A stretch of 63,992 bases of DNA, filler included. It is 4 parts of 4 records of this genome, joined end to end, with 100 filler letters (N's around TTAATTAATTAA, not from the genome) between each part and the next. Parts side by side here need not be neighbours in the genome. Positions count along the whole stretch, not along the records: positions 1 to 21,045 come from SRR31147125_2077; 3 more parts are not named here. One strand, written 5' to 3'. The notes beneath the pieces were generated by a model. That model did not search any database, was not told the origin of the DNA, and saw only the letters and a list, made by a program, of their open reading frames with translations. Every line of letters begins with the position of its first letter. The first letter of the stretch is position 1. The position numbers and the translations under genes are program-made. This document shows positions 3,998 to 32,881 of this stretch, piece by piece.

Positions 3998-4581
3998 TTA
4001 AAATTTCTTTTTTAAAGTATCTTTTACAAAGAGATCTTCAAGTCGCTTAGTTAAAGCTATCAATTTGGCGTCGAAATTTTTCGAATCCAGCAAAGAAAAA
4101 ATTGTATGTTCCCTGTAGGATCAATGATTAAATTAGACGCGATGCAAATCTCATCACGAGCCAAATCCGGTAGAACCTCTGGCGGCGCATAACTGGCTGA
4201 GATTTTACCGTCGCTATCCAGCAATATTGGAAAGGAAAGTTTCCGGGCATCTGCCCATCTAGCAGCGAGTTCCTTGCTTTCCTTTACATTAATGATAAGA
4301 ACCTGAACGTTACAAGATTTGTACTTTTGCCACAATGTTTCTAAATGCGGAGCCTCCGCATTGCAGAACGGTCACCAACTGGCTGCAAAATGGATAACAA
4401 CATACATGCCACGCAGATCCGAAAGAGCCAGCGTTTCGCCCTGGAGCGTTGCCAATTCAAACAAAGGAGCTTTTCCAGGATTCGGTTGTTTGTTTTCCTC
4501 TGCAAAACTGTTCATGTGGCCGAGCGCCGAAAGAAGCAGAATCGAGAGAATGTGAAGAAGACGGAAGATTATATTAGCCAT
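3998..4581 (-). CDS. TlpA/AhpC-TSA-family thioredoxin-fold selenoprotein (UxxC)
   Basis: Signal peptide, then APLFELATLQG...VVIHFAASW-UGA(4372-4374)-PFCNAEAPHLE in frame with the 4060-4335 ORF; probable 1-nt homopolymer deletion near 4096-4101 restores ...FFSLLDSKNFDAKL; AGGAG RBS. Confidence 0.85.
4344..4362 (-). promoter_or_regulatory. Candidate SECIS hairpin of the TlpA-like selenoprotein
   Basis: AAUGCGGA-GGC-UCCGCAUU stem-loop; the G-initiated loop starts 17 nt after the UGA. Confidence 0.7.
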
Positions 4582-4684: not shown

Positions 4685-5497
4685 TTACCGTTGGCTTTTT
4701 TTAGCTCGAAAGTTAATTCCAACGGTCCCAAAAGCAGCGGCACTACTCGATTGAGGTGCACCGCTAAAGACATCTGCTCGCCAGGTAATCTCGAAATCGA
4801 CAAAACCAGCAGAGACAACTGCCGCCTGTAACTCTGCTTCCAGCAGAGCGCCGGCAATTCAGCCAGTCCACAATTCGATTTTTCGTTTGGCATCCGCTGA
4901 CACGGGTTTTTGCACCAGAATGTCGCCAATTTGCAGTCTTCCTGTCGGTTTGAGTACTCGTGCCATTTCCAGAAGCGTCGTGGATTTATCAGGGCTTAAA
5001 TTAAGTACGCCATTAGAGATAACCACATCCGCCCAACCATCTTCTACAGGTAAATCTTCCGCGTATCCGAAACGAAAATCCACATTAGTAATACCCGCCT
5101 CGACTCCAGCGTCTCGCGCCTTATCGAGCATCGTGGAAGTCATGTCAATGCCTACAACCCTGCCGTTTGGAGCGACTTTCCTGGCAGCGATCAAGCTATC
5201 AATTCCCGCACCACATCCTACATCAACAACTCGCTCGCCAGGCTTAATCTCTCCAAGACGAAACGGATTGCCTGTCCCGGCAAATGATTCAATAGAAGAT
5301 TCGGGAATTCCTTTTAGCCAATCCTCATCATAATCGAGCAAACGCGCGAGCGGTCTGCCCGTATGAAAATGAAATCCTTTTTGAGGTTCATTCGCGACCG
5401 CGTCATATTCTTCACTAATGGCATCCCGCAGCTCTCCTAACTCCAGGCCGAGCTCCGCGACCCTCTCAGTGATGTCTAATGATATTTGATTACTCAT
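4685..5497 (-). CDS. ArsM-like SAM-dependent methyltransferase, selenoprotein
   Basis: SAM motif VVDVGCGAGID; LWTG-UGA(4859-4861)-IAGALLEAEL aligns with ArsM xCxxGAL; frame stays open for 57 more codons to TAA at 4685. Confidence 0.88.
4831..4849 (-). promoter_or_regulatory. Candidate SECIS hairpin of the methyltransferase
   Basis: CUCUGCU-GGA-AGCAGAG, loop 17 nt after the UGA; a lower stem AUUGCCG/CGGCAGU can also form. Confidence 0.7.
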
Positions 5498-5734
5498 AGC
5501 GTTATCTCCATTCATGTAAAAATATCTGATACTTTGTAATTTATATGTCTAATATCTCGATTTCCTGCTTATCAAAAGCAGACATCCTGAACAAATCTCT
5601 TCACAAAAACATTATTTCCTGACCATTCTTACAATGATCCACATTTAAAGGAAATCTGGCACACTCGCGATTGGTAAAACCGATTTTAATTAAAACAACC
5701 ATTCCGCAGCAAAACGTAGGATTCACTTCTCTCA

Positions 5735-8177: not shown

Positions 8178-9857
8178 TTACGCATTATGTACTTTTTCAG
8201 CCAGGAATTTTTGAATCTCATCAGGTGTTTTGGATTTACTCAAGAGAGAAACAACGACATTTGCAAAAATAGCTAACGGTGCTCCTAACCAGGCAAAATA
8301 CCATGCATTCAAATAATAATTAATAAATTCTTGTCCGGGTAAACCACCACCGTATTTTCCGACGATGAAATAGACCAGGGCGACAAGAGCTACAGAAGAT
8401 CCGGCTAATAGTCCGGCCCAGGCACCTGTTCTGTTGGATCCTCCCCACCAGATTCCCAAAAGGAATAATGGAAAGATAGTACAACCCGCCAATGAAAAGG
8501 CAATGGCAACCAACTGAGCGATCAAACCCAGTTTCAATAATGCAACGATAGCCACCGATGCAGCCATTAAAATGGTTCCAATGCGAGCCATGAGCATTTG
8601 CGTGTGCTCGGTTGCATTGGGATTAATAGTTTTATAATAGAGATCATGAGAAAACGCAGATGCACCAGCAACCAAAAGGCCGGATACAGTTGAAAACGCG
8701 GCTGAAATAGCCCCTGCAGCAAGCAAACCGACAATAAGTGGAAAAACAGCACCTAATTGAGCCGTATAAACCACAATGGCGTCTTTGGCCAGTGCACCAA
8801 CCTCAGGATTGGATGATAATATTTTACCAAAAACAGAATAGACTGGTGCGCTCCAGTATAGCAGACAAATAAAGAAAAGCCCCCATACAACAGACCAACG
8901 GGCATCACGGGCTTTTGGTACAACGTAAAATCGTTGGATAACATGAGGTAATCCTGCTGTGCCAATCATTAATGAAAAACATATGGCGATCCATTGAAAG
9001 GCAGTTTGACCTGTTGCCGGATCCCACGGCATGGCAAACTCGGGTGCCGGTAAGGTTGCAAATTCGTGCCCCAACGCAGACAATCCTTTGCCCGGTGCCA
9101 AACCATTCACCGTATCTGTTACAACCTGACCGTATCCAATTTGTGGTATAAACCAAAAATAACCAAATTTATAAGCTAATATAAACAGAGGAATCATAAA
9201 AGAAACAATGATGATGACGTACTGAACCTGCATATTCTTGGTAACTCCCAGCATGCCGGAAATAAGAGTATAGGTAAGCACAACAGAGGCACCTATAAGA
9301 ACGGCCCAGGTATAATCAATGCCCATAACCCACTTGAACATAATTCCAATTCCAGCAAACTGTCCAACACAATAAGAAAAGGAAATAAAAATCGCCAGGC
9401 AAGCACCGAATCCGCGCAATCCCTTGGAATAATAGCGATCTCCAATAAAATCTGCTGCGGTATATTTACCGTAGCGCCTGATCTGTCCTGCCATCAGGAT
9501 GAGCAATAAAACGTAACCGCCGGTCCACCCCACGACATAGGATAAACCATGATAACCGGCTCCATACATAATGGCCGCCATACCCAAAAAAGACGCGGCA
9601 CTCATCCAGTTGGATGCAATGGCCATACCAGCACCAACCGGTGAAATCTTTCGGCCAGCAGCCCAATAGGTTGATGTATCTTTTGCACGATTAAAAACGC
9701 CAATCATAACAAATGTAACGAGAATAATAATGAGTAGTATGGCCGGCCCTTCTTTAAAATCACCTTCTAATGTGGTCGCACTTGTGGAATTTGCTAAAAT
9801 CGGTAAGCTTATACACAGAATCAACAAGATGGTTAGTAAACTCGACTTTCGTAACAT
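8178..9857 (-). CDS. actP: Sodium:solute symporter, ActP/cation-acetate type
   Basis: GMAIASNWMSAASFLG, GTAGLPHVIQRFY, AAFSTVSGLL motifs; AGGAG RBS before ATG 9857. Confidence 0.85.
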   Translation of the reverse strand: MLRKSSLLTILLILCISLPILANSTSATTLEGDFKEGPAILLIIILVTFVMIGVFNRAKDTSTYWAAGRKISPVGAGMAIASNWMSAASFLGMAAIMYGAGYHGLSYVVGWTGGYVLLLILMAGQIRRYGKYTAADFIGDRYYSKGLRGFGACLAIFISFSYCVGQFAGIGIMFKWVMGIDYTWAVLIGASVVLTYTLISGMLGVTKNMQVQYVIIIVSFMIPLFILAYKFGYFWFIPQIGYGQVVTDTVNGLAPGKGLSALGHEFATLPAPEFAMPWDPATGQTAFQWIAICFSLMIGTAGLPHVIQRFYVVPKARDARWSVVWGLFFICLLYWSAPVYSVFGKILSSNPEVGALAKDAIVVYTAQLGAVFPLIVGLLAAGAISAAFSTVSGLLVAGASAFSHDLYYKTINPNATEHTQMLMARIGTILMAASVAIVALLKLGLIAQLVAIAFSLAGCTIFPLFLLGIWWGGSNRTGAWAGLLAGSSVALVALVYFIVGKYGGGLPGQEFINYYLNAWYFAWLGAPLAIFANVVVSLLSKSKTPDEIQKFLAEKVHNA

Positions 9858-9885
9858 AGAAATCTCCTTTATAATCAGCGCTTTA

Positions 9886-10590
9886 TTATTCATCAATGTC
9901 ATGTTTTTTATGTAATTTGTCAATTGCAACGGCATAAATGATACATAGTACGACAAACATTATTAATAGGAATTGAGCGGTATACCAGTAATGAAAAGGA
10001 AATCCTAAAAACCGAGAGTCTGTTAAAAAACTGCGATTATGGACAAGGTAAAGCTGCATTATTGGGGGAATTTGTTCTTTCATTTCAGGGCTAAAATCTC
10101 CGTTTTTAACCTTGACCAGTGACGTAGGCAAAAGTTCGTATAAAAGTTTATCAAACCCATCGGTTTGAAGCCCCAAAACCCCATGTAAATCGTTGTCAGC
10201 CAGAAAGCCAACAGGATCCCGGGTAAACATTATTTTTTGTTCTTCTGGCAGGAGATCCAGAATTAATTTGGAGACAGCAATCTTTAAAACATCCTTGTGC
10301 GGTTGTTTGAGCACAATATTTTTTCCCAATACAGATAATGTAATTCTGGACAAGTCCTGTTTGACCTGCGCATCCTGATTCGTTCCATCAACCACACCGG
10401 GCCAGATCTGTTCAAATTTGGCATAATTAGCTTCGGGCACCGGTTTATTTAACAGGATAAGCAAAACCTGAAATCCAAAGACGGCAACAGCCCAAATAAT
10501 CGCGAGTGTGAGAATGAGCTTCATGTTGGCCCTGGCATGCTCTGTGACTGGTCTGAAAAAATTCACCTTCACTTTTGCAGTAGTTTCCAC
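9886..10590 (-). CDS. DUF4212 (SSS small subunit) protein with a large insertion
   Basis: N-terminal TM (LAIIWAVAVFGF) and C-terminal FLGFPFHYWYTAQ motif; directly upstream of the symporter. Confidence 0.75.
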   Translation of the reverse strand: METTAKVKVNFFRPVTEHARANMKLILTLAIIWAVAVFGFQVLLILLNKPVPEANYAKFEQIWPGVVDGTNQDAQVKQDLSRITLSVLGKNIVLKQPHKDVLKIAVSKLILDLLPEEQKIMFTRDPVGFLADNDLHGVLGLQTDGFDKLLYELLPTSLVKVKNGDFSPEMKEQIPPIMQLYLVHNRSFLTDSRFLGFPFHYWYTAQFLLIMFVVLCIIYAVAIDKLHKKHDIDE

Positions 10591-11709: not shown

Positions 11710-14603
11710 TTACGCAATACCTGTAAAATCGTAGCTTAATTTCTTTTGAAAATTGCCAATTTGGGAAAATATTTTTTTCAACATATGCTGTTCAATCTGT
11801 GTCAATTTTTTGGGATTGATATAATTATCCGGTTTTATATTATCGTTTAAATCCTGGACCTGATGTTGAAAACGCAACATCATTAAATAATTATAACATT
11901 CCACTATTTCATCACGAGATGCCCGGGTAATGACATTCTCCTCAAAAAGTTTACGTAATCGCTGCAGAGTATTTCGTTCGGAAATGCTATGACGGAGAGA
12001 ATAGATTCGGGCAAAATCGACGATGGGCATTAATGCATATTTTATATCAAAAGCCTCATGATGTTCTCCAGACGACTTTTTAATATTCCCGGTAAAAGTA
12101 ATGGGTGGTTTCACCAGCAATGAATTTTTTGCCAAATGGTTATAAAATCCGGGTTTATCCTGAGAGATCTCTTCTACATAGCGTCTCAATTCTCTAACAA
12201 GGGACAAATCACCATATAGGTAACGAAAGTCAAAAAAGATGCTGATATCTATTAAATCCTGTGGTTCGGCTTCATTGATCCAGTGAGAAAAATGTTTTTT
12301 CCATTCACTCAGACTAACACACCATTTTGGATTTTTCGCCATTACATCACCATTACAATAACGATAACCGGCTTGATCAAGCAAATCATTAACCATTTCC
12401 GCTAATTTTAAAAAATAGTCCTGAACATTCACTTTCGTATCTTCATATACGAGAACATTATCCTGATCTGTGACAAGGGTTTGTTCTTCCCGGCCCTGGC
12501 TACCCAACACCATAAAAGCAAATTTAACCGGGGTTCCCCCAGTTCATCCAAAACAATTCGAATAAACCTGGTTGCAGCAGAATCTCCCACCGAACTGATG
12601 ATCCGGGTCACATTGGGTGCCAGAGCTCCGCTTTCAACAAGATATTTCACCATTTGAGGTAACGTCTTGCATCTTTCAATGAGATCATCCACTGATTCAG
12701 CCCGATTGATTTCCTGAACCAATAAACCGGCTGAATATTGTGAAAGTTGTATTATTTCCTTATCTGAAATAAGATTATTAATATGCCCATGAATGTCAGC
12801 CAAGGGTAAATGTCGTATGAGCTTTTCCTGCATAAGAAGTAAAGCTTCGAAGACAAGAGCATTTTCCGACAAAGAGATCACAGGGGATGTCATAATTTCA
12901 TAAACAGGCCTGGACATTTCCTTTTCATCACAAACGACGCGTCCCCAGAGATCATCTGCTGTAACAATACCAATGGTCTCGCCCGTGTCGGTAACAACGA
13001 GAGCTGCGCTATGGTCATTCAATTTTATTTCCCGCGCTGCACTCTGTATAGGAGTGTTCATGGGTATACGAAGACATTTTCGGGCAAAATGTTTCACCGG
13101 TTGATTGAGGTAAACCAATGATGTCTGTAATTCCACGATGATCTCTTCTCTCGCCTGCTCCGTTTTCTTCAACTCGGAAATATCTTCAATAATACCATCA
13201 ATAAATCTGCCCGATTCATCCTCGCTTTTATTAACAACAGCAGAGACAGAAACAATAGAATTCACACCATCCCGACGTCTTAATTGAATAATACGCTTAT
13301 TAACAAATCCTTCATTCAATAAATTAGAAGTAAAAACAGTGGCTTCATCTTTGTCGCGAAAAAAATCAGTGATCGTTAAATTATCCAGACTTTCCTCGTC
13401 ACATCCCAGAATCTTCTTCCCCGCTCCATTCAATTCAATAAATCGCGGCTTTTTTCCCAACTGAATTCGAAATACGCCGATATTAACATTGTCCGTTAAC
13501 ATCTGGAATTTCTGTTTGCTCTCACCAAGCTCTTCCTTGATTTTATTCAGTCCGCCCATATCCTTGGCGATAACAATATAGCCTTTTTTACCGAAAATAT
13601 GTATCTGAGAGATCGATACAAGAGCGTCAACAAAAGAACTATCTCTGCTCACAAGCCGGGCTTCAAACTGTTCCGGAATCTCCCCGGAATGCAACAGACT
13701 AATAAAATCTGTATATTCTGTATGATCTGATATATCCGGAACGATCAATTCGTCCAGATTCATTTGAACAAACTCGCTTTCCGTAAATCCAAGCATATTT
13801 TGGATGATTTGATTGGCAAAGATAACATGAGAATCCATAATCATCAGCGTACCTTCTGTGGATGCCTCTACCAATGTTTTATATTTTTCCCGTGACTCGG
13901 CAAGTTCCTTTTCCGCTGCCTGTTTTTTCCTTTCAATCTGCAATGTTTGCCGGGCAGTATATGATAAAATCAAAGCGAGGATAATAATAATGGCCATTGA
14001 AATATGGATTAACCTTCTGGTGATTCGGGAAATTTCTGCACCAACATCTTCAACATATATCCCCGTACCAATCACCCACTCCCAGGGTGCAAATCCGCGC
14101 ACATAAGATAATTTGGGCACAATGCGGGTGGAATCGTCCTTCCATTGCCACCAATAATCAACATAACCCGAACCGTTTTCCCGAACTATTTTTACAAATT
14201 CCACAAAAAGCTTTTTCCCATGTGAATCAACAAAATCCGTCAAATCCTGCCCGTTGAGGTCACCACGATAAGGATGAACGATCATGAGAGGCTGCATATC
14301 GGTTATCCAGAAATAATCCTTGTTTTCACTGCCATATCGAAGTGACCGAATACCGAAAATGGCTTTTTCCTGTGCCTCCACCAACTCGAGTTCACCGGTT
14401 TTTACCTTTTCATGATAACTATCCAGTAAATTCCAGGCGGAATTGGTGAGTTCACGGATCATTTCTCGCTTGCGATCCATCAGGTGTTTTTCTGAAGATG
14501 GAATAATGATACAAAAAATGGCAACAATAAAAAGGACAATTGCCAATAAAGTGGGAAGAATTATATTGATAAGAAAGGATCGGACAAATGACGTTTTTGA
14601 CAT
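11710..14603 (-). CDS. Cache-PAS-PAS-CBS-DUF294 nucleotidyltransferase-like sensor (frameshift near 12530)
   Basis: TM-sCache (LRYG...YFWI...HP...GSGYVDYWW...PKLSYV...WVIGTGIY)-TM, two PAS, a CBS pair, then LGSQGREEQTLVTDQDN and FFDFR; adding one C at G-run 12530-12533 joins the two ORFs (ELGEPPVKFAFMVLGS). Confidence 0.85.
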
Positions 14604-14976
14604 AATAGACTCTGTTTTTTGGGTTCCAAACAAAGTTATTTTCACTAAAATATAGGAATTTACAATATTAAAAAACACAAAAAAAATATCAAACTGGCTT
14701 TTTCATGCCTTTCGATTGCTATCTATGTGTTTTTATCTAATTCGTGGTCAAGTTATAACTGTGAACGTCGAAATAGCCGATGCCGCAGTTTAATTATTTT
14801 TGTACATGCAGGTCAGGATATAAAAGAAAAGGCTGGTAAAAACCAACCTTTCCATTTGAAGATTCATATTATGATCTTTTCTTCAGGAATCAATGAAGCA
14901 AATGAAATTAACTAACGTCAGCTTAATGCGAGCGTGAACGAATGTAAAAAAGCAAACCGAGCAAAACCAATTTCCC

Positions 14977-17412
14977 TTACTTTAAAATGATCAGTTTATT
15001 CATATCTACAAAGGCACCTGCTTCCATTATGTAGAAATATATTCCTGACGGTAACTCTTTTGTTTTGTATGGAATTTCATGACTTCCGGCACCATATTCC
15101 TTATCTGTGACAATATCTACTTTACGTCCTAAAATGTTATATAAAGTTATTTTTACTTTTTCTGCTTTTGCCAGGTTGAAACTGATGGTAGTAGATGAGT
15201 TAAAAGGATTGGGATAATTCGGCCTCAAACAATAAAGTCCGGAAAGTTGAGGAGGTTTTTCATCGGTAATATTTGTAATGGATAGATTTATATAAAATAT
15301 CCCCTGATAATTCGTACCTAAATATAACAAATGGTTCACAAGATCCCATTCTGTGGTTTGAATTATACCTGTGCTATATTCAGGATCTATATCGATCCAA
15401 CTTTCATTGTCACCATCCTTGATAAAAAGTCCCCGATCTCTAGTTATGGCGTAAATTCTATCCGGTGCCTGTGAATCAATGACAATTTTTATAAGATGAG
15501 ATAAACTCGTATTGAGTGATTGCCATGTTAGGCCACCGTCGCTGCTCTGATATACATCATTATCACAGGCGGCATAGATCGTAGTTGGGGATCCGGGAGC
15601 AAAGCACAGGTCCCGAACATAATTTCCTGCATCCTGAAGAGCCGTACTAACATTTTCCCAATTCATACCGCCATCTGCACTCCGGAACAATATACCTTTA
15701 TTCTCTGAATTTGTACTTATCTGTCCACCTGCAAATAAAATATTGGAATTCCCCGGAAAGACTGAAAACGTCGATATTGAACAATTTTGCAAAGAGGTTA
15801 TTTGTGTCCGGGTCCAGGTTTCTCCACCATCATGACTTTGACTTATCCCAATGACATTTTTATTTTCAATTTCATAGGATCCAAGAATATATATAATATC
15901 AGGATTATTCTTATCAAAGATTATTTTGCCGGGTGAAAGGCCACTATTCAATTCAAACCAATCGGAACCACCAACTGTGGTTTTATATAACTTGTACCCG
16001 GCACTTCAGCGGCCTCTTTGTATAATATATACAATCTCAGGAGATTGAGGATGAACCTCGATTTCAGGAATGGATAAACATGGATTTAAATTTTGCAAGG
16101 ATATCCAGGACTTGCCTGAATCCATTGATTTATAAAGAACATCTCTTACACTTGCATAAATTATCCTCGGATCAGATGATGTGATACCAATCGCACGAAT
16201 ATCTGCAGTAATGATACCGGAATTAACATAGCTCCATGTTCGACCGGCATTAAGGCTGCGACGAATTCCTTCTGAACCCGCAAAAAACAGGATATTGGGA
16301 TCAAAAGAATCAACTATTAATGCGTTACACGAACTCATTATATCATCCAGAATTATATCCCAATTTACACCACCATCTGTACTTTTAAAAACGCAGCTAT
16401 CATACCCTGCGTAAATAATATTTGAATTCATCGGATCAACGGCAAGCTCATATGCTTTGGCAGTTCCATTATTCTTTAACCAGCTTGAGCCACCATTTTC
16501 GCTTCGGTAAACAGCGTCTCTTGTACCTGCATAAATTTGTTCCGGATTCCGTAAATCTATTGTTAGGCTTGTAAGTTCTCCTGAAATTCCATCCGAAATA
16601 TCGACCCAGGTGCTTCCGCCATCTACGCTCTTACGTAACAAGGTATAAACCCAAACTGATTCATTTTCGAATTTTCTACGCATTCCACCTATATAAACAA
16701 TATTTGTATCTTCAGGACTTGCAGCAAGGCAGGTTACATGATTATATGTACTATCGACGTTAGGAATATCAAAGGAAACCCAGTTTATACCTCCATCACT
16801 ACTTTTTAGTAATCTGGAGCTTGTTATGGTTTCAGTTCGAGTCCGACATTGACCACTCATATAGATCAAATTGCTGTTGTTTGGATGAACGTAAAGCTCA
16901 AGAAAATTACAGAGCAAAGGTAAGGATATAGAGTGCCAGTCATAACCCCCATCAAAACTTTTATAGAATGAACCATGTTGAGAAACAGCGTATAATACGG
17001 AAGAATTAAAAGGATCCATTCTTATTGATGAAATATCATATAGCGGGAATTTTTGCGGCGGAGTTCCAAAAACAATGTTTGATTCGAGTTTTTCCCAGTT
17101 TTCGCCGCCATCCAAACTTTTATAAATCAGCGAAGTGGGGTGAACTAATGCATATAAAACCTGATGATCAGTTTGATCCATAATAAGCGTGCGCACATCG
17201 CCGCCCGCAGGGCCAATCTGATGCCAGGACCAATCATTGTCTTTCATAATAGGTAAATTTTGATGACCGTCTGAAAATGATGACCTTGCACCGGGGCGTG
17301 TCATTATATTTTCATTACTATGAGGTCGAAGGATTATTTGTGATGAGGACGAATTCATCAACACAATAAATAAACAAAATAATACTATTGTTATAAATGT
17401 TACTTTCATCAT
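14977..17412 (-). CDS. Secreted BNR/VPS10-like beta-propeller protein with NYPNPFN C-terminal sorting domain and in-frame UGA (probable Sec)
   Basis: Many S.DGG..W repeats in both ORFs; QRGR-UGA(16006-16008)-SAGYKLYKTTVGGSDW joins ORFs 16006-17412 and 14977-15951 in frame. Confidence 0.75.
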
Positions 17413-17477
17413 ATTAATAATATTTAGTAATAAATGACTGACGCTTAAAATCCAATCTATGTCTTTTATTTGTCAGC

Positions 17478-19112
17478 TTATTTTAAATACAGCATCTTGA
17501 TATATTGTTTATACGCCCCTGCAATCATTTGACAGAAATAGATTCCACTGGAAATATTTTTCCAATCATCATTTTTCGCATCCCACATCACAAAATATTT
17601 GCCTGCGTTCATTTCTTCATTCACTAAATGGCGAATTATTTGACCAACCTGGTTTATTATCAGGACTTTAACTCTTTCTTGCTTTGCTAATTCGAAGGAT
17701 ATGGATGTTTGTGGATTAAAGGGATTGGGAAAATTTTGACAAAGTTTGAATTGAACCGGAAGCTGGCTAAAACCATCAACACCAGTGACAGCAGCAACCG
17801 GGGAGCTGAAATCAGAAGTATTGCCAACCGAATCGGTAGCCGTTGCCGTTACATAATTTGTGGGTGAATGGCCGCCTGTTAGAAATGTAAAATATCCGGA
17901 TTCATTCGACAAAGTGGCTCCCAAAAAGCTTTGTCCCTCATCTTCGTCATCTTCAAATATCTCTATGGTCATGTTGGGCCCGGCTGTACCTGTTACCTGA
18001 GATCCGCTTACAGATTGTATGACCGGCCGTGCCAGCTCCATATTGCCACCCTGATAATTTATTATGCCCATAGCCCCGTTTCCGGAAATGGAATTCCGCG
18101 TCAATGTATTGCTAACCGCCATGTTGCCATTAACACTTATACCATACCACCCATTATATCCTATCACATTGTCCATAATCAGGTTGTGTGTCGCACTGTC
18201 CGAGAATGTCCATATGGTAATCCCGTTGCCAGTGTTTCCAAACGACATATGCCAATCATCATTAGTCCCAATGAAATTATGGGCTATCATATTATAACTG
18301 GATTCCGTAATGTTGACACCGACCTTGTTCCCCATGATCCAGTTGTCATAGACTTCATTATGATGACTTTTGTCACTGATATTCACACCGCCATATCCGC
18401 CAATCAACCCATTCCCAATGGTATCACTTTTTGTACGATTCATTCCGATGATGTTACCAATAATAACATTGTTCGAGCTGCCAAATCCCAGTGTGATACC
18501 AACCCAGGGATTTCCGGATATGACATTGGGGAGTGTGTCCATAGGAACAATGTGATTAGACTTACTACCATCCACGTATATGCCATATATGTTGCCTTTG
18601 GCTTCCATACCTGTGGGATCTGTACCGATGTAACATCCGGTAATATGGCAGTTGATGGCCCCATCCAGATAGATACCCGCCCCTCCAAATTCATTAATGG
18701 TGAGATAATAGATATGTACACCTGAAGATATTATAAATATTCCGTTATTGCCAATCGCAACCGAGCCTTTAAATTCGATCTCAGGTCCGGAGGGATTGGT
18801 ATCTTCCCCGATAAACTCGGACTGGGACATCCCGTTTATGACGAGATTCGAATCCGTTATAACATAATGACTGCTTGCCATTATGGTCCATACGCCCGTG
18901 TTAGCACTATAGCCTGGATCGGCTTTTGGAATTTGAAACAAAATAATATCCGGTTCAGCACTGATGGCGGACTGTTTTATAGCATCACGAAATGAACCCA
19001 GGCCTGTATCCACTGTTGTTGTCACAAAAAGATCAGCCGGGAACAGATTGTTAGGGAAAAGGCAGATTGGCACCATTACCAGCCAAATCCAGTTTAAACG
19101 TCGCAACTTCAT
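17478..19112 (-). CDS. Secreted right-handed beta-helix (NosD/pectin lyase-like) protein with C-terminal sorting domain
   Basis: Signal peptide, GSFRDAI, repeated N.I.GN..G motifs, QNFPNPFN tail. Confidence 0.8.
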   Translation of the reverse strand: MKLRRLNWIWLVMVPICLFPNNLFPADLFVTTTVDTGLGSFRDAIKQSAISAEPDIILFQIPKADPGYSANTGVWTIMASSHYVITDSNLVINGMSQSEFIGEDTNPSGPEIEFKGSVAIGNNGIFIISSGVHIYYLTINEFGGAGIYLDGAINCHITGCYIGTDPTGMEAKGNIYGIYVDGSKSNHIVPMDTLPNVISGNPWVGITLGFGSSNNVIIGNIIGMNRTKSDTIGNGLIGGYGGVNISDKSHHNEVYDNWIMGNKVGVNITESSYNMIAHNFIGTNDDWHMSFGNTGNGITIWTFSDSATHNLIMDNVIGYNGWYGISVNGNMAVSNTLTRNSISGNGAMGIINYQGGNMELARPVIQSVSGSQVTGTAGPNMTIEIFEDDEDEGQSFLGATLSNESGYFTFLTGGHSPTNYVTATATDSVGNTSDFSSPVAAVTGVDGFSQLPVQFKLCQNFPNPFNPQTSISFELAKQERVKVLIINQVGQIIRHLVNEEMNAGKYFVMWDAKNDDWKNISSGIYFCQMIAGAYKQYIKMLYLK

Positions 19113-21045: not shown

Positions 21046-21145
21046 NNNNNNNNNNNNNNNNNNNNNNNNNNNNNNNNNNNNNNNNNNNNTTAATTAATTA
21101 ANNNNNNNNNNNNNNNNNNNNNNNNNNNNNNNNNNNNNNNNNNNN
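21046..21145. other. Artificial contig spacer
   Basis: N-run with central TTAATTAATTAA; composition changes across it. Confidence 0.98.
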
Positions 21146-21221
21146 TTTTTTATTATTTTAATAAATATGACACATATTTGACACATTTATCCTATATAAT
21201 ATATGCGTAGGAGGTTTTTAT

Positions 21222-22022
21222 ATGAAAAAAGTCATTTTTATATTTTTAATAAGTATTGCAGGATTATTACTAAGTTCATGTAGTAGTGACTATGACATGG
21301 GTTATGATTACGATGATGAAGGAGAAGTGCTAGCAACTTCAGAAAATGGAATACCCGAAAGACAAATTATTTATGAAGTTGATATTTCATTTGATGTTAA
21401 AGATTTAGAAGAAGCTTCAAATGATTTAAAAGATATGCTTGCATCAGATGAATGGTTTGATCAAGAGTCTCTATCAGATACAAGACATGCATATGTCATA
21501 CGTGTAAAAACAGATAGATTAGATGCCTTTATTGAAGATTTAAAAGATGAGTTTGTCCTAAGAAATTATGAGAAAGTTGGGACAGATGTTTCACTTGCAT
21601 ATCAAGATACATCAAATCAAATACTTGCGCTTGAATCACAATTAGAAAGATTGCTTGAACTCTATGATGATGCATCACTTTCTGATATGATACTCATCAA
21701 TCAACAAATATCAGATATCGAAGTGGAACTTCAATCACTTAATCATACCATCAACACATATGATTCACTTATTGAATATAGCCGTGTTGAACTTGATTTT
21801 TATGGCAGTAAAGTCACCTCACAATCACCGTTTTTTAACAGATTAGCCAATGGGTTTTTAAATGGCTTAAATGGACTTATTTTTGTGCTTGACCAATTGG
21901 TTATTGTGATAGCGACTATATTACCTTTTGGACTCGTTCTCGGTGGTATAGGTGGTGCGACATGGTTATATATTAAAAAGAAAAATCGTAATGACAAATC
22001 TAAACATACTAAATCTAAATAA
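21222..22022 (+). CDS. DUF4349-domain lipoprotein
   Basis: Lipobox-like LLSSC, coiled-coil DVSLAYQD...LERLLEL, C-terminal TM. Confidence 0.8.
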   Translation: MKKVIFIFLISIAGLLLSSCSSDYDMGYDYDDEGEVLATSENGIPERQIIYEVDISFDVKDLEEASNDLKDMLASDEWFDQESLSDTRHAYVIRVKTDRLDAFIEDLKDEFVLRNYEKVGTDVSLAYQDTSNQILALESQLERLLELYDDASLSDMILINQQISDIEVELQSLNHTINTYDSLIEYSRVELDFYGSKVTSQSPFFNRLANGFLNGLNGLIFVLDQLVIVIATILPFGLVLGGIGGATWLYIKKKNRNDKSKHTKSK

Positions 22023-22034
22023 ATAAGTTATAGA

Positions 22035-22066
22035 TGACCTAGTTCCACAAGTGACTAGGTCTTTTT
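22035..22066 (+). terminator. Rho-independent terminator
   Basis: GACCTAGT...ACTAGGTC followed by TTTTT. Confidence 0.7.
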
Positions 22067-22140
22067 ATATGATTTTAAAGGATTATTTTGATAACATATG
22101 CATGAATTAGTTTTAATTTCAAAATAATGGAGGATTTAAC

Positions 22141-23460
22141 ATGAATAAAGAAAAACAAATTAGTGTTGTTGGAGGTATATCTATACTCGCTGGCATTATG
22201 ATAGGTTCGGGTATATTTTTCTTAGGGGGTCAAATACTTGGACGTATCCAAGGATCACTTTGGTTATCACTTGCTGCATGGGCGGTTGGAGGTATTATCA
22301 CGCTTTTTTCAGGATTATCATATGCAGAACTAGGATCACTTTTCCCAGAAAATGGTGGATACTATGTTTATTTAAAAGAAGGGTATAATAAAAAAGTAGC
22401 ATTTTTATCTGGTTTTATGAATCTTGTTTTATCATCATCAGGTAGTATTGCATTACTTGCCATATTATTTGGTCAAGTCATGAGTAATATTTTTCCTGAA
22501 CTTGGATCATATATATCTATTGTTGCTATCGCTGCAATCATCTTATTAACCATAATTAATTATTTTGGTATTCAATTAGGTCAAGTTGTACAAATTGTAT
22601 TTATGGCAGCTAAACTCATACCGATTGTGATGATTATTGTGATGGGTATATTTATTGGTAAACAACCGATTGTTTCAACCTCAACACTTTCAAACTTATC
22701 ATTTTTTGAAGGTCTGGTTGCATTTGGATTTGCTGTTGTAGGTACACTTTGGGCATATGAAGGTTGGACAAATCTAAATGCTGTTGCTGGACAAATGAAG
22801 CATGCAAAAAAAGATTTACCAAAAGCCATGAGTATTGCTGTTGTTGGTGTTATGGTGATATATGTATTATTTATATTTTCACTTTATAGATTGGTTCAAT
22901 ATAGTGATTTATTAAGTGCACCTAATGGATGGTTTATTTTTAATGCAGCATATGTTTTATTTGGTGATACTGGACAATTACTAATCATGATATCAGTAGC
23001 GGTTAGTGTATTTGGTGCACTCAATGGTAGTGTATTGGTATTTCCTCGCGTTTATCAAAAGATGGCGAAAGATAAGTTGTTATTTAAAATATTTGCAAAA
23101 GAAGATAAAACATATAAAACGCCAGTATATACGTTACTCTTATCAGCAGCAATGTCTATTCTATTAATTATATTACCCTTTGATGTTGAAGCGTTGTTAA
23201 CTTTTGTCGTGTTTGCGGGATTAATCTTTAATACACTTATATTCATTGCTTTATTTAAATTTCGTAAAACAAAACCAGTTGAAAACTATCCGAGATATCA
23301 AGTTTTTGGTTATCCCTATATACCAGCTATCGCTATTTTTGGTATGTTATTACTATTAATTGCAACACTGATCGAAAGTTTCATACCTTCGATGATTGGT
23401 GTTGGTGTACTTATTGTTGGTTATGTGGTGATTCATTTCACAATAGGTCAATCATCTTAA
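22141..23460 (+). CDS. APC-family amino acid permease
   Basis: GIMIGSGIF, YAELGS.FP..GG.Y.Y, WAYEGW; about 12 TMs. Confidence 0.9.
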   Translation: MNKEKQISVVGGISILAGIMIGSGIFFLGGQILGRIQGSLWLSLAAWAVGGIITLFSGLSYAELGSLFPENGGYYVYLKEGYNKKVAFLSGFMNLVLSSSGSIALLAILFGQVMSNIFPELGSYISIVAIAAIILLTIINYFGIQLGQVVQIVFMAAKLIPIVMIIVMGIFIGKQPIVSTSTLSNLSFFEGLVAFGFAVVGTLWAYEGWTNLNAVAGQMKHAKKDLPKAMSIAVVGVMVIYVLFIFSLYRLVQYSDLLSAPNGWFIFNAAYVLFGDTGQLLIMISVAVSVFGALNGSVLVFPRVYQKMAKDKLLFKIFAKEDKTYKTPVYTLLLSAAMSILLIILPFDVEALLTFVVFAGLIFNTLIFIALFKFRKTKPVENYPRYQVFGYPYIPAIAIFGMLLLLIATLIESFIPSMIGVGVLIVGYVVIHFTIGQSS

Positions 23461-23551
23461 TTTGCAACATTCAATGATTCGTTGTAAAATAAGTGTATAT
23501 GAAAAATCCTCATACAGTTGAGGATTTTTTAATAGATGGGAAACTAAAAAG

Positions 23552-24892
23552 ATGGATATAAAAACATTTAATCAACTAAAAAAATATAGTGATGCAAATG
23601 GTGTTGCATCTGTCATTGATCATCGTATCCATATGTCATTAAATGCATATGGTTTATACGAGGAGCACGTTGATTTTGAAGTTAAAGATATTAATGATCA
23701 AGTGCGTCATGTGATGTCACATCTTTATACAAAAACAAATGAAACAAAACTTGGTAAAAAACTATTTGGTGATATCGCTGATATTAAATATGATCAGCAA
23801 TTAGGCTATTATAAACATTTATATGCTGGCTATGTTAAAGAAGGCAATTATAGAGAAATTGCTACTGCTGGTGGTATGGCAACTTGGTTATTTGCTGAGT
23901 TATTTCGTAAAAAACTAATAGACGGCGTCATTCATGTAAAACAAAATAAAGATAAAGATAGTGATATATTATTTAAATATGATATTTCATATTCAATCGA
24001 TGAAATAAAAGCAGGTGCTAAATCTAAATATTATCCTGTTGAAATGTCAGAAGTCCTAAATATTGTAAAACAAAAACCTGGCAAATACGCAGTGATTGGT
24101 AGCCCTAGTTTTATCATGTCCCTTCGACTTTTATGTGAAGAAGAACTTGTATTTAAATCTCGTATTAAATTTATGATTGGTCTTATCGTTAGGCATCATA
24201 AAAGTGCAAGATTCGCAGAATCTATTGCATGGCAAGTCGGTATTAAACCTGGACATTTAACATACATCGATTTTAGAAAACCAATACTCAATAAACCTGC
24301 TAGCCAATATGCTGTGCAATTAGAAGGATATAAAAATGGTCATTTAGAAAGAATTATTAAACCAATGCACATGTTTATTGATCAAGATTGGGGTGGCTAT
24401 TTTAAAGCAAGAGCTTCCGATTATTTAGATGATGTCTTTAATGAAACTGCTGATATTACTTTGGGTGATGCTTGGTTAGAGCAATATGATAATGACCCAT
24501 TGGGTACCAATGTGGTCATTACTAGAAATGAAACCATTGATAAACTCATCAAACAGGCTTTTAAGGATAATAGAGTATATCTTGAGCAACTTTCATCAAA
24601 ACAAGTAAGAGCAACACAAACATCGCATTATCGTCACACACATGATGAACTATCTTATCGTTTACTTAAATTAAAAAATCAACATCAGTGGTACCCAGTA
24701 AAAAGGGTAGAACCAAATGATCATATTTCTGATTTTAGAAAAAATGTTCAAGATTTTAGAGAAATGATACGAAATGACAGTCATACATACTATTTAAAAG
24801 CAAGACAAAATGGTGATTTTAGTATTTATAGAAATCAAATGATTAAATTACAAAGCGCATATAAAAAGCTATATCAAACAAAAAATAAATGA
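23552..24892 (+). CDS. FrhB/FdhB (coenzyme F420 hydrogenase beta subunit-like) family protein, Cys-depleted
   Basis: TAGGMATW...LIDGVIHV, AKSKYYPV, ADITLGDAW motifs. Confidence 0.75.
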   Translation: MDIKTFNQLKKYSDANGVASVIDHRIHMSLNAYGLYEEHVDFEVKDINDQVRHVMSHLYTKTNETKLGKKLFGDIADIKYDQQLGYYKHLYAGYVKEGNYREIATAGGMATWLFAELFRKKLIDGVIHVKQNKDKDSDILFKYDISYSIDEIKAGAKSKYYPVEMSEVLNIVKQKPGKYAVIGSPSFIMSLRLLCEEELVFKSRIKFMIGLIVRHHKSARFAESIAWQVGIKPGHLTYIDFRKPILNKPASQYAVQLEGYKNGHLERIIKPMHMFIDQDWGGYFKARASDYLDDVFNETADITLGDAWLEQYDNDPLGTNVVITRNETIDKLIKQAFKDNRVYLEQLSSKQVRATQTSHYRHTHDELSYRLLKLKNQHQWYPVKRVEPNDHISDFRKNVQDFREMIRNDSHTYYLKARQNGDFSIYRNQMIKLQSAYKKLYQTKNK

Positions 24893-24951
24893 GTCTTATA
24901 GATCGCATGAATCAGGTGTGATCTATTTTTTTATTTTTTTAATTAAGAGAC

Positions 24952-24980
24952 TTGACAACTTTTTAAAAATTTATTATATT
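24952..24980 (+). promoter_or_regulatory. Sigma70/SigA promoter of groESL
   Basis: TTGACA-17 nt-TATATT. Confidence 0.75.
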
Positions 24981-24984
24981 ATAA

Positions 24985-25011
24985 TTGGCAACCAAGTAAT
25001 AAGAGTGCCAA
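24985..25011 (+). promoter_or_regulatory. CIRCE element (HrcA operator)
   Basis: TTGGCAACC-N9-GAGTGCCAA versus consensus TTAGCACTC-N9-GAGTGCTAA, directly upstream of groES. Confidence 0.85.
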
Positions 25012-25038
25012 TAAATAAATATTCAAGGAGGAGTTTTC

Positions 25039-26940
<1,902 letters not shown>

Positions 26941-26948
26941 TAAAATAG

Positions 26949-26989
26949 AAGGAATAAAGCCAAGATGTTATCTTCTTTATTCCTTTTTT
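26949..26989 (+). terminator. Rho-independent terminator after groEL
   Basis: AAGGAATAAAG...CTTTATTCCTT plus T-run. Confidence 0.7.
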
Positions 26990-27016
26990 ATATGATATAA
27001 TGCATGCAGGTGATGA

Positions 27017-27559
27017 TTGATGATTGTATTAGTAGGCGCAAGCGCAAGTGGAAAAACAGAAATAGCAAAAATACTTTTTAACAAATATGGGTATAAAAAA
27101 TGCATAACAACAACTTCTAGAAGTCCGCGTAAAAACGAAGTAGATCATGTTGACTATCATTTTTTATCAAAAGAGAGATTTCAAGAGTTAATGGATAAAG
27201 ATGCATTTTTAGAAGTTTCAATTTACAACCATCATTATTATGGTTTTCAAAAGAAAGATGTGATGTATAAAGGTGTGGTAGTCCTTGATCCAAATGGAGC
27301 TAATGCCGTGATACGTGCAAACATCAAGGATGTCATGATTGTCTATGTGCATAGTGATAAAGATTTAAGAGAATCTAGAATGATTCAACGTGGAGATTGT
27401 AGGGAAGACATCAAAAAAAGACTAACATCTGATGATGAAACTTTTAAACCATCAAATATTAAGCGTATTGATTTAAGGATAGAAAATCATGAAATCGATA
27501 TTGAGTCTTTGGGGACCTATATTCATCAACAATATATACAAAGTAAAAAAGCATCATGA
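27017..27559 (+). CDS. gmk: Guanylate kinase
   Basis: GASASGKT P-loop, TTTSRSPR..E...DYHF, YYG. Confidence 0.85.
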   Translation: MMIVLVGASASGKTEIAKILFNKYGYKKCITTTSRSPRKNEVDHVDYHFLSKERFQELMDKDAFLEVSIYNHHYYGFQKKDVMYKGVVVLDPNGANAVIRANIKDVMIVYVHSDKDLRESRMIQRGDCREDIKKRLTSDDETFKPSNIKRIDLRIENHEIDIESLGTYIHQQYIQSKKAS

Positions 27560-27617
27560 GCTTCATGATGTTTTTTTTATGTTAAAATCTTACTATAAGT
27601 TGAAATGAGGCGATGTA

Positions 27618-28064
27618 ATGAGATATAAAGTAGATTCAATTGATGCATACATGAAGGCTATTCCAAAAGATAGAGTACGACCTATTAATCAGTTAAGAGA
27701 AGCTATTAAAAATAATTTACCAGAGGGATTTGAAGAGGTCTTACAATATGAAATGATATCATATATTATACCCTTATCAAGATATCCTAAAGGCTATCAT
27801 GTCACACCAAATACACCATTACCGTTTATATCACTTGCATCTCAAAAAGCAACGATTAATTTATATCATAATGGTATTTATGCAAGCCAATCATTACTTA
27901 CTTGGTTCAATGAAACATATAAGGAAATGTTTGGAAAAAAGCCAAATATGGGTAAATCTTGTATTAGATTTAAAGAAGTCAATGAGTTAACCATTGATTT
28001 AATAGCTCAATTGTGTACAAAAATGACTCCTCAGGATTTAATTGATCTATATGAAAATCGATAA
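27618..28064 (+). CDS. DUF1801 (YdhG-like) protein
   Basis: LP.GFEE, YP.GYH, ASQK..I.LY, MGKSCIRF. Confidence 0.85.
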   Translation: MRYKVDSIDAYMKAIPKDRVRPINQLREAIKNNLPEGFEEVLQYEMISYIIPLSRYPKGYHVTPNTPLPFISLASQKATINLYHNGIYASQSLLTWFNETYKEMFGKKPNMGKSCIRFKEVNELTIDLIAQLCTKMTPQDLIDLYENR

Positions 28065-28163
28065 ATATTAAAGTATACAGCGATGTATGCTTTTATTTTA
28101 TGTATTTTTTAACTAGTTTCATGTTAAACTGTTAAAGGAATAAATAGAAAAGAGAAACATTTT

Positions 28164-29369
28164 ATGAAAAAGAATAAAACCATTATTATACTTATTATCT
28201 TATTTTTATTGAATCAGATTGCTGCAAATGTAGGGCATCCTGTTACACCAGCTTTTGTAAAAAGTTTAGGCATCGAAGATTATATGTTTGGTGTGTTTTT
28301 TGCATTCATGGCTGCAGGATTGACTATAGGTGGTCTTATATTTGGCTATTTAGGGGATCGTTACAAAAAGAAATATATGATTATGATTGGATATGTGATA
28401 TATGCGATTGCTCAATTTGGTTTTGGGTATGCAGAAAATCAATATGCAATGATCTTTTTTAGATTCTTAGCTGGACTTGGTGCAGCAGCAACGATTACTT
28501 TATCAACAGCTTTAGTGATTGCACATACAACAGATAAAAATCGTACTAAAATTTTAGGATTTGTTGCAGCAGCAATGACACTTGGTGCATCAATTGGATA
28601 TTATTTAGGTGGTCAATTAGGTGCGAATCAATGGTTCATTGATTTACTTGGGACAAGTGAATTAAAATATATTTTCCTTATCCAAAGTGGACTCAATATC
28701 TTTGTTGGAATTTTAGTTTATTTCTTTTTACAAAATGAGCGTGTTCTTATTCAAAATAACAAAGATAATTTCTTTAAATCCATGCGTACGATTACACAAT
28801 TAAAACCGACATTACTTATATTTTTAGGTTCACTCATGCTATTTACCATGGGTAAAATTAATACTGAAAAATATTTAGATGTATATTTTAATGACTTAGG
28901 ATATTCAAGTGGTGATATTGGTACTTTTGTATTAGTCACAGGGATTGTATCACTATCAGCAAGTATCTTTGTCGTACCATTATTTAACAAAGTTAAAAAT
29001 AAAATTGCTACGATGGCATTGATGCATTTACTTGCAGCGTTCATCATTATTTATGTGTTTAGATCAGAAGTGTTTATGACATCAATTTATAGTGTTTATA
29101 TGATATATATTGTCATACGAACCGTTTATCAGCCCCTTGAGCAATCATATATATCGAATCATGCATCAGATGGTAAATACGCAATGATTATGGGTGTTAG
29201 ACAGTCGTTTTTATCACTTGGTATGATTATTGGTCCACTCTTAGGAGGATTAATATATCAAATATTACCCAGATATTTATTTGATTCATCTGCGATATTA
29301 TTTATATTAAGTGGTGTTTGCTTAGTTGTAGTCATCATGATGATTAAAAAACAACCACAAATTGACTAA
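28164..29369 (+). CDS. MFS transporter (drug:H+ antiporter-like)
   Basis: GYLGDRY.KK motif A, RFLAG, G.IIGPLLGG; 12 TMs. Confidence 0.88.
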   Translation: MKKNKTIIILIILFLLNQIAANVGHPVTPAFVKSLGIEDYMFGVFFAFMAAGLTIGGLIFGYLGDRYKKKYMIMIGYVIYAIAQFGFGYAENQYAMIFFRFLAGLGAAATITLSTALVIAHTTDKNRTKILGFVAAAMTLGASIGYYLGGQLGANQWFIDLLGTSELKYIFLIQSGLNIFVGILVYFFLQNERVLIQNNKDNFFKSMRTITQLKPTLLIFLGSLMLFTMGKINTEKYLDVYFNDLGYSSGDIGTFVLVTGIVSLSASIFVVPLFNKVKNKIATMALMHLLAAFIIIYVFRSEVFMTSIYSVYMIYIVIRTVYQPLEQSYISNHASDGKYAMIMGVRQSFLSLGMIIGPLLGGLIYQILPRYLFDSSAILFILSGVCLVVVIMMIKKQPQID

Positions 29370-29460
29370 AAGTGCGATATAACGCACTTTTTTTATTGAG
29401 TGAGATGTTGTATCACATTAATGATCATGCATATGATATGATATAATAAACATAACATAG

Positions 29461-29480
29461 ATATCATATAAATATGATAT
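29461..29480. promoter_or_regulatory. Palindromic putative operator upstream of gnd
   Basis: Perfect ATATCATAT-AA-ATATGATAT between a TATAAT -10 box and the RBS. Confidence 0.5.
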
Positions 29481-29495
29481 ACAAGGAGGATATAT

Positions 29496-31754: not shown

Positions 31755-32374
31755 AATATTATGACGTTACAATGAAAATCAGTCCAAGTATTCAAGTGTA
31801 TAAGAATGATCCAGCAAAAATACCGGTATTTGAAAATGCAAACAATCATGATATAGGAACAACACATGAAACAGTTGTTAAAATGAATGTGCATACTGGG
31901 ACACACTTAGATTTTCCATTACATATGATTAAAAATGGAAAAACTTCTGATACTTATGATTTTAAGAAATACATCAGAGAAGTGAAAGTTTTTGATTTAA
32001 CCCAAGTTAAAGAAGAAATAACTTTAAATGATATTCAAGATTTAGATATTCAAATCAATGATTTTGTATTTTTTAAAACACAAAACAGTTTTGAAGATAC
32101 TTTTAATTTTAAATTTGTATTTGTCAGAGAAGACGCAGCAAAATATTTAAGTGAAATAGGTATTGCTGGTGTTGGTGTTGATGGTTTAGGTATTGAACGT
32201 GATCAAAAAGGTCATCCTACACATTTATATTTAATGCATAAAGATATTGATATTATTGAAGGATTACGTTTAAAAGATATAAATCCTGGGACATATATGA
32301 TGTATGGTCAAGCGATTCCTTTAGAAGGACTTGATGCATGCCCAATGAGTATCGTTTTAGCGAGTGATGATTAG
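31751..32374 (+). CDS. Cyclase-family (kynurenine formamidase-like) metal hydrolase
   Basis: HTGTHLD.P.H, VGVD, IIEGL; ATGA overlap with the zwf stop. Confidence 0.88.
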   Translation: MKYYDVTMKISPSIQVYKNDPAKIPVFENANNHDIGTTHETVVKMNVHTGTHLDFPLHMIKNGKTSDTYDFKKYIREVKVFDLTQVKEEITLNDIQDLDIQINDFVFFKTQNSFEDTFNFKFVFVREDAAKYLSEIGIAGVGVDGLGIERDQKGHPTHLYLMHKDIDIIEGLRLKDINPGTYMMYGQAIPLEGLDACPMSIVLASDD

Positions 32375-32879: not shown

Positions 32880-32881
32880 AC

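Follow-up and report, generated by a model that had tools for sequence, protein, structure and literature searches.

A conserved in-frame UGA in a predicted secreted tandem Asp-box propeller: a probable selenoprotein with a type IX sorting domain

Introduction

To our knowledge, the known bacterial selenoproteins are, with few exceptions, redox enzymes of the cytoplasm or periplasm. Their selenocysteine (Sec, U) usually belongs to a thioredoxin-like motif or to a metal centre. Here we describe a gene for a predicted secreted tandem Asp-box (BNR) beta-propeller that carries one in-frame UGA, found on a 63,992-nucleotide stretch of joined metagenome-derived pieces (the window, meaning the whole stretch that was analysed; its positions 1 to 21,045 come from record SRR31147125_2077). 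The gene probably encodes a real selenoprotein, with Sec read at UGA469 of one 811-residue protein, of a family that is undescribed in the literature that could be searched.

The deep-Sep survey describes nine new selenoprotein families, a TonB-dependent receptor among them and none a propeller according to its main text (PMC12013277), and extracytoplasmic selenoproteins of the SAO system are described in the text of Haft's preprint (10.1101/2022.07.06.499078). In Asp-box propellers, as PMC2716378 states it, loop 2-3 lies on the variable "top" face, where the catalytic and ligand-binding residues of every known Asp-box glycosidase are found. The words BNR, propeller, sortilin, secret, photosystem and extracellular are missing from the main texts of deep-Sep (PMC12013277) and BSepDB, and BNR and propeller are missing from a 2022 review and from Haft's preprint (10.1101/2022.07.06.499078). 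Among the papers listed by literature searches, none combined selenocysteine with BNR, Asp-box, VPS10, glycoside hydrolase family 74 (GH74) or a type IX secretion system (T9SS), nor was any T9SS cargo with selenocysteine found; supplementary listings or BSepDB entries could differ. A preliminary description of this DNA, made by a model from the letters alone, had placed the protein outside the classical selenoprotein families, in agreement with the main texts of these surveys.

Results

A standard listing of open reading frames (ORFs) gives two minus-strand ORFs in one frame, 16006..17412 (468 aa) and 14977..15951 (324 aa). The preliminary description had joined them in frame through a single TGA, and reading 14977-17412 with TGA as U confirms this: the product has 811 residues and a single U at codon 469 (TGA 16006-16008), in the context ...VYIIQRGR-U-SAGYKLYKTTVGGSDW. 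That description needs correction as to the strand, the gene lying on the minus strand. Its further point that the BNR pattern continues beyond the TGA holds, for an Asp-box is present in the 18 codons that separate the TGA from the earliest start codon of the second ORF. The two targeting signals are divided between the ORFs as it had said, with a hydrophobic N-terminus (MMKVTFITIVLFCLFIVLM; helix 4-20 in the AlphaFold2 model) in the first only and the Por_Secre_tail domain (residues 733-809) in the second only. Together, the signal-peptide-like N-terminus and this tail give the read-through protein the predicted architecture of T9SS type A cargo. Pfam matches of the read-through protein are Sortilin-Vps10 (PF15902; 7.2e-36, 124 bits), PSII_BNR (46 bits) and Por_Secre_tail (1.2e-11); the Sortilin-Vps10/BNR repeats are spread along the chain, with Asp-box motifs in loop 3-4 of most blades. 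The NCBIfam model "F510_1955 glycosylhydrolase" scored 170.5 against a cut-off of 175, and no NCBIfam selenoprotein model matches the propeller protein.

Orthologs were reached only through a truncated database protein, P0216, and not with the window protein as query, which found no close ortholog: identities were at most 36% in the protein database and 22-26% for the best full-length matches in genome contigs, with nothing close in metagenome contigs. P0216, from a HMMER scan of representatives, has 486 aa, is 38% identical over query residues 58-465, ends just before the TGA column of the window and has the same upstream Cys. Its relatives in genome contigs, loci L111 and L112, each form one read-through frame of about 835 codons with TGA at the column and a terminal T9SS tail. 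In all, TGA stands at one alignment column in nine loci for which DNA is available (the window, G001, G002, G016, G044, G037, G060 and two copies in G053), the eight besides the window coming from 7 of 167 genomes of the same phylum. All nine sequences begin with TGA once cut at the aligned column, and in each locus the downstream frame is open to the T9SS tail, intact over 300-340 codons. In agreement with this, nine database proteins stop exactly before the column (P0216, P0274, P0287, P0300, P0308, P0321, P0340, P0361 and P0482, eight of them retrieved by profile searches of the protein database). The orthologs are 26-34% identical to the window protein in the nine-sequence alignment, where C445 upstream of the UGA is invariant, as are T479, G481, G482, S483 and W485 after the UGA and before any restart codon. 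Since these residues are invariant, the stretch after the UGA appears to be under protein-level selection, and translation would therefore continue past the UGA. Restart codons vary in position, at distances from the TGA of 18 codons in the window, 27 in L111 and 53 in L165. The second copy in G053 (L144, contig C477) is shorter, lacks the greater part of the first propeller and retains the Cys...U pair, a GGUC hairpin and the T9SS tail.

Two other explanations of the TGA can be set aside here. TGA serves as an ordinary stop in 2 of 10 genes of the first piece and 9 of 41 genes overall, and the G001 ortholog itself ends in TGA; the genetic code is thus standard, and a changed code with TGA as sense was excluded. 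An error of sequencing or assembly in a metagenome-derived piece might be suspected in a window that concatenates pieces of a seemingly mixed bin, but independent assemblies carry the same codon at the same place, which leaves this explanation next to no probability.

Co-variation with the upstream Cys was examined with a hidden Markov model (HMM) of the blade, by which the 144 homologs scoring at least 50 bits were aligned; 18 have the upstream Cys and 126 do not. Sequences truncated at the Sec column make up 9/18 of the former and 0/126 of the latter, and our own read-through Sec forms 3/18 and 0/126. Cys stands at the column in 3/18 (P0251 and, more weakly, P0278 and P0359) against 6/126, Trp in 1/18 against 13/126, and another residue in 2/18 against 107/126. 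Every TGA form has the upstream Cys, and homologs lacking it are never truncated at the column. When residues are counted from the conserved strand, P0251 has its Cys precisely where its truncated relatives have the Sec position. The upstream Cys and the Sec-column residue are both lost in P0123, P0152, P0223, P0234 and P0309. A quick maximum-likelihood tree (27 rows, midpoint-rooted) has Sec forms in all three well-supported clades, intermixed with double-loss forms, and the Trp-bearing G059 sequence as sister to the Sec form of G060, with a Shimodaira-Hasegawa-like approximate likelihood ratio test value (SH-aLRT) of 99. The rows are related by descent, and the counts are not independent events. 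We read the Cys...Sec pair as ancestral and then repeatedly lost. The preliminary description had set as its check that the position be conserved as TGA or Cys and co-vary with the upstream Cys; TGA in nine loci, Cys in P0251 and the joint losses all go that way. The Cys that it had noted is present (C445, TGT 16078-16080), at 24 rather than about 22 residues before U.

On the window itself, an indirect sign of Sec decoding is that two classical Sec genes with strong downstream hairpins share the contig piece with the propeller gene. The Sec machinery was sought in the genomes that carry orthologs. SelB scores above the curated cut-off in six of the seven genomes with a TGA form (G001, G002, G016, G037, G044 and G060), the best match in G053 falling below it. 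Because SelB passes the cut-off in 120 of the phylum's 167 genomes, including the unpublished G159 and G163 (118/165 without these two), a phylum-wide association with the Sec trait is uninformative; SelB also exceeds the cut-off in G059 and in the five nearest genomes. Gene order adds a closer link. In G001, G002 and G016, selD lies directly upstream of the propeller gene (regions L111 25-3599, L165 239-1228 and L166 488-1489; TIGR00476, 374-398 bits), and the selD product of G001 visibly contains Sec. The C-terminal part of selB is found two genes further upstream in G001, so that selB, a gene of unknown kind, selD, the propeller gene and an FG-GAP gene are clustered.

This last gene codes for an FG-GAP/VCBS-like T9SS protein and is the next one downstream after the propeller gene in G001, G002 and G016 (L111 6820-8154; L112 4312-5643, with the same place in L165; L166 4494-5969). 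In G001 and G002 it has a conserved in-frame TGA of its own, in the motif SVAYG-U-CMGAYPQIADW, and is a candidate second secreted selenoprotein. The G016 gene shows only a two-ORF split at TGA. This candidate was not found in the window, where tblastn matched only the T9SS tail domains of other genes.

The RNA element is the weakest part of the case. The hairpin AACCAC-AGUUG-GUGGUU of the preliminary description was recovered at 15966-15982, with the stated 29 nt from UGA to loop. The loci fall into two subgroups by hairpin. Subgroup A (the window, G001, G002 and G016) has AACCAC-AG[U/A]UG-GUGGUU with its loop 27-30 nt after the UGA, and these 17 nt are the same in all four but for one loop base. 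Subgroup B (G044, G037, G060 and both G053 copies) has C[A/G]GG[C/U]G-GGUC-C[G/A]CCUG about 35 nt after the UGA, with a 6-bp stem in which one C-G pair is exchanged for U-A and one A-U pair becomes G-U. Its GGUC loop presumably recalls the SECIS (selenocysteine insertion sequence) loop of Escherichia coli fdhF. In G060, the loop of a 7-bp hairpin lies 22 nt past the UGA and that of another hairpin about 40 nt past it. The classical genes give z-scores of -1.42 (redoxin of the window), -2.04 (methyltransferase of the window) and -1.13 (selD of G001), with stems of 7-13 bp and GGN loops 18-21 nt after the UGA.

A single SECIS common to the nine loci found no support: hairpin 1 pairs in 75.9% of alignment cells with no covariation, and hairpin 2 in 79.6% with one covarying pair, a score reached by 55 of 500 shuffles. 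Codon conservation speaks more clearly. At columns with identical residues, subgroup A has identical codons in 4/6 cases within the 18 codons after U against 18/137 in the rest of the gene (22/143 gene-wide; Fisher p 0.005), the codons ACC ACA GGT GGT being identical in all four members. The same synonymous-site test gave p 0.09 for subgroup B and p 0.028 for an alternative set, B2. Among the 5-15 Asp-box motifs of each gene, the hairpin at the Asp-box of the UGA blade ranks 1, 1, 5, 5, 2, 1, 2, 3 and 1. Rfam has no SECIS match for the propeller gene; as the classical Sec genes of the same contig were missed too, this result is uninformative. Some constraint at the RNA level after the UGA is suggested by these comparisons, and the SECIS itself is a non-canonical candidate.

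A number of findings weigh against selenocysteine at this position. On the RNA side, the 60 nt that follow the UGA of the propeller gene have a folding energy of -11.3 kcal/mol (z -0.16; 81 of 200 shuffles fold as well), and the 71-nt hairpin region (z +0.43) is no more stable than shuffled sequence. The propeller-gene hairpins have only 6-7 bp, are of two types by subgroup, and have loops 22-35 nt after the UGA, versus 18-21 nt in the three classical genes. RNAalifold gives only a 4-bp consensus, with a covariation score that 55 of 500 shuffles reach, and in G002 and G016 the UGA-blade hairpin is fifth among the Asp-box motifs of its own gene. As for the proteins, the nine truncated database entries are protein records only, from which the type of stop codon is not readable. 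There is one clear Cys ortholog, P0251, since P0278 and P0359, at 50-55 bits, may align to another blade. Trp is common at the column in paralogous blades (13/126), and the G059 ortholog (the same protein as P0181) has TGG there despite the presence of SelB. The preliminary description had counted Trp at this position against Sec; it does occur, in only one of ten orthologs, and because that one is also sister to a TGA form in the quick tree we read it as a secondary loss. The SelB evidence is from ortholog-carrying and nearest genomes rather than from the window's own genome, and the window has no tRNA gene. Finally, no ortholog was found in the five nearest genomes at E <= 1e-40. As DNA synteny with nearest genomes (G105, G117, G119 and G120; 67-72% identity) also ends near window position 14,619, just before the gene, the propeller gene is patchily distributed.

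This patchiness would suit a broken gene, either a nonsense pseudogene or two genes for which the TGA is a true stop, as would the two ORFs of standard gene calling and the public gene calls that end at the column. The same "break", however, would then be shared at the same column by nine loci of divergent genomes with an intact frame of 300-340 codons beyond it; invariant residues would lie between the TGA and any restart codon, and the restarts themselves would differ in position (18, 27 and 53 codons). Nor would either part be complete, the second being without a signal peptide and the first without a sorting tail. A broken or split gene is on these grounds very unlikely.

The main rival is read-through of the conserved UGA without selenium, which we consider improbable. 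Here the UGA would be kept as a leaky or regulatory stop, passed by a near-cognate tRNA (most likely that for Trp) or by some other bypass, with little full-length protein and mostly a 468-residue periplasmic fragment. The TGG of the G059 ortholog accords with this, yet TGG is one mutation away and TGA persists in nine loci at 26-34% identity. Trp-Gly is frequent at the column in paralogous blades, just as Sec forms have U-Gly, but the UGA always goes with the upstream Cys, which 13 of 14 Trp forms lack, and the homolog P0251 has Cys at the column. The weak, non-canonical hairpins would be expected of a leaky stop; the conserved synonymous sites directly after the UGA would not, nor would SelB in six of seven genomes with a TGA form and selD adjoining the gene in three. 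The 468-residue product, moreover, would stop 1.5 blades into the second propeller.

The read-through protein was modeled by AlphaFold2 from a 38-row alignment, with a mean predicted local distance difference test (pLDDT) score of 82.1 and a predicted template modeling (pTM) score of 0.72. In Foldseek searches with this model the top 20 or more matches were all GH74 xyloglucanases (2cn3, 5fkq, 4lgn, 1sqj), with template modeling (TM) scores of 0.56-0.59 by query; the best match (E 1.5e-27) had TM 0.59 by query and 0.65 by target over 778 aligned columns. Identities to the GH74 matches were 15-19%. In the model, strands 446-453, 461-467 and 473-478 of the UGA blade are followed by the Asp-box and, after it, strand 486-488. 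A simple antiparallel register (453 with 461, i+j = 914) would set residue 445 opposite residue 469. Assignment of GH74 catalytic residues by sequence was tried and given up, since the alignments are out of register between repeats; with the catalytic Asp pair left unmapped, the propeller protein was not filed as a GH74 enzyme.

Table 1. Coordinates of the propeller gene, its parts and the two classical Sec genes of the window
Feature	Coordinates	Strand	Basis
Whole read-through coding sequence	14977..17412	-	811 codons and TAA stop; predicted secreted tandem Asp-box beta-propeller with one in-frame UGA; Pfam, AlphaFold2, Foldseek
Signal-peptide-like N-terminal segment, about residues 1-25	17338..17412	-	Sequence MMKVTFITIVLFCLFIVLMNSSSSQ; model helix 4-20, then low-confidence linker 20-61
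First beta-propeller, about residues 63-400 (boundaries approximate)	16213..17226	-	Model strands, Asp-box repeats, Foldseek to tandem 7-bladed GH74
Cys445 codon (TGT), 24 residues before the UGA	16078..16080	-	Invariant in 9/9 orthologs; present in 9/9 truncated database forms; directly precedes inner strand 446-453
In-frame UGA, codon 469, proposed Sec codon	16006..16008	-	Loop 2-3, second blade of C-terminal propeller; TGA in 8 other loci; flanking strands 461-467 and 473-478
Candidate SECIS region	15955..15983	-	Hairpin 15966-15982; alternative extended fold overlaps Asp-box codons
Asp-box of UGA-bearing blade, T479-W485	15958..15978	-	Between UGA and first possible restart codon; invariant residues in 9 orthologs
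Second beta-propeller, about residues 400-710 (boundaries approximate)	15283..16212	-	Contains the Cys445/U469 pair; model strands, Foldseek
Type A C-terminal sorting domain (type IX secretion), residues 733-809	14986..15216	-	Pfam PF18962 1.2e-11; NCBIfam TIGR04183 39.4 bits (cut-off 23)
Thioredoxin-fold redoxin, W-U-P-F-C motif, UGA 4372-4374	4060..4581	-	Pfam AhpC-TSA 6.6e-25; 13-bp hairpin, loop GGC 18 nt after UGA, z -1.42
ArsM-like methyltransferase, U at codon 230, UGA 4859-4861	4685..5515	-	Pfam Methyltransf_31 3e-30; loop GGA 18 nt after UGA, z -2.04

Other features of the window

The window consists of at least four pieces, with N44-TTAATTAATTAA-N44 spacers at 21046-21145, 37185-37284 and 58796-58895; the pieces 1-21045, 21146-37184, 37285-58795 and 58896-63992 have G+C contents of 41, 31, 40 and 30%. 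Piece 1 has a transporter (8178-9956) that shares 92-93% identity with genes of G105, G118 and G120, and the contig therefore belongs to the phylum with the orthologs. On piece 2, a G6PD/6PGD fusion (29496-31754) is 80% identical to Acholeplasmataceae genomes, because of which the bin is probably mixed.

The preliminary description had mentioned two clearer Sec genes on the same contig, and both are indeed on piece 1 together with the propeller gene. The methyltransferase has the motif ELWTG-U-IAGAL; in NCBIfam it comes nearest to models for arsenite methyltransferase selenoproteins, reaching the cut-off of none. The redoxin gene terminates in TGA, with a second stop immediately after.

T9SS tails also occur in the neighboring genes 17478-19112, 42740-44323 and 46791-47525. 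A PorV-like ORF (55093-55815), on another piece of the window, scored 27.8 bits, just above the cut-off of 27, and a PorV/PorQ-family gene near a G053 copy of the propeller gene scored 76.9 bits against a cut-off of 90. The T9SS beta-helix gene adjoining the propeller gene (17478-19112) was, like the latter, not found in the nearest genomes at the thresholds used, and window positions 14620-19112 may be a lineage-specific insertion.

A Cache-PAS-CBS sensor ORF, 12429-14678(-), overlaps ORF 11710-12513(-), whose start corresponds to position 53 of the DUF294 profile; the two resemble a single gene (11710-14678) that a frameshift or an assembly error has split near 12429-12513. Piece 2, low in G+C, has a fluoride riboswitch (RF01734; 36.9 bits, gathering score 34) at 34712-34784 (+), a short way upstream of a gene of the Na+/H+ exchanger family (34805-36007).

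Discussion

The suggestion that Sec occurs in an exported, non-thioredoxin beta-propeller gains support from the conserved UGA, the open downstream frame, the partner Cys, the two classical Sec genes of the same piece and SelB in six of the seven genomes with a TGA form. We propose that SelB with Sec-tRNA would decode the UGA, aided by a short hairpin made largely of the blade's own Asp-box codons. The protein would cross the inner membrane via its signal peptide, fold into two seven-bladed, GH74-like Asp-box propellers and exit from the cell through the T9SS, for which it has the C-terminal sorting domain. Cys445, where the inner strand begins, and Sec469, within that blade's loop 2-3, would both be on the "top" face, opposite each other in antiparallel register. 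There they may form a selenylsulfide pair, as a second-propeller site that is redox-active or binds a soft metal or chalcogen; such a site is proposed because of the strand register and because of the role of top-face loop 2-3 in Asp-box glycosidases. For the Cys-Sec bridge as such, it is only the modeled strand register that suggests it.

If Sec is indeed inserted, its use in a secreted glycoside-hydrolase-like propeller would widen the range of locations and folds in which selenium is employed. Public gene calls would then cut the family in two, with at least nine database entries ending at the UGA. The family would also be a concrete case of how a SECIS can arise from ordinary coding sequence, and natural controls for experiments would be at hand in the Cys/Sec pair and in the variants with Cys or Trp.

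A more far-reaching proposal, which we make tentatively and regard as doubtful, is that the protein is the founding member of an extracellular selenoenzyme family. It would combine Sec in the catalytic-type loop 2-3 of a GH74-like propeller with a cross-strand Cys, T9SS export and a SECIS recruited from hairpin-prone Asp-box codons, possibly after a TGG-to-TGA change, and in one clade it would form a module with selD and a second secreted selenoprotein (FG-GAP-like, with a G-U-C motif). Such a module would point to selenium-dependent extracellular redox or metal/chalcogen chemistry.

Among known systems, the GH74 xyloglucanases are closest in predicted fold, having tandem seven-bladed Asp-box propellers, a match over nearly the whole protein and sequence-profile similarity (E 3e-30); identity is only 15-19%, however, and the sequence alignments slip out of register between repeats. 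Sortilin/Vps10 and Ycf48-type Asp-box (BNR) propellers share the Pfam matches (PF15902 and PSII_BNR) and the Asp-box in loop 3-4, but they have ten blades or a single seven-bladed propeller, whereas the present model is tandem and nearest to GH74. The tail is that of T9SS type A cargo, matching PF18962 and TIGR04183, and neighboring genes share it.

Compared with thioredoxin-fold UxxC selenoproteins, such as the redoxin at 4060-4581, the fold is a propeller, the two residues are 24 apart on neighboring strands rather than in a UxxC turn, and the hairpin is short and further from the UGA than in the two classical genes of piece 1. The two cases are alike in their conserved in-frame UGA, partner Cys, Cys homolog, losses in lineages and SelB, here in six of seven genomes. 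The TonB-dependent receptor that deep-Sep predicts to be a selenoprotein (PMC12013277) and the predicted SAO-system selenoproteins SaoB/SaoC (10.1101/2022.07.06.499078) differ in fold and secretion route; as presented in the main texts, they resemble the propeller protein in that Sec is proposed in an exported protein outside the thioredoxin fold and that public records are truncated at the UGA.

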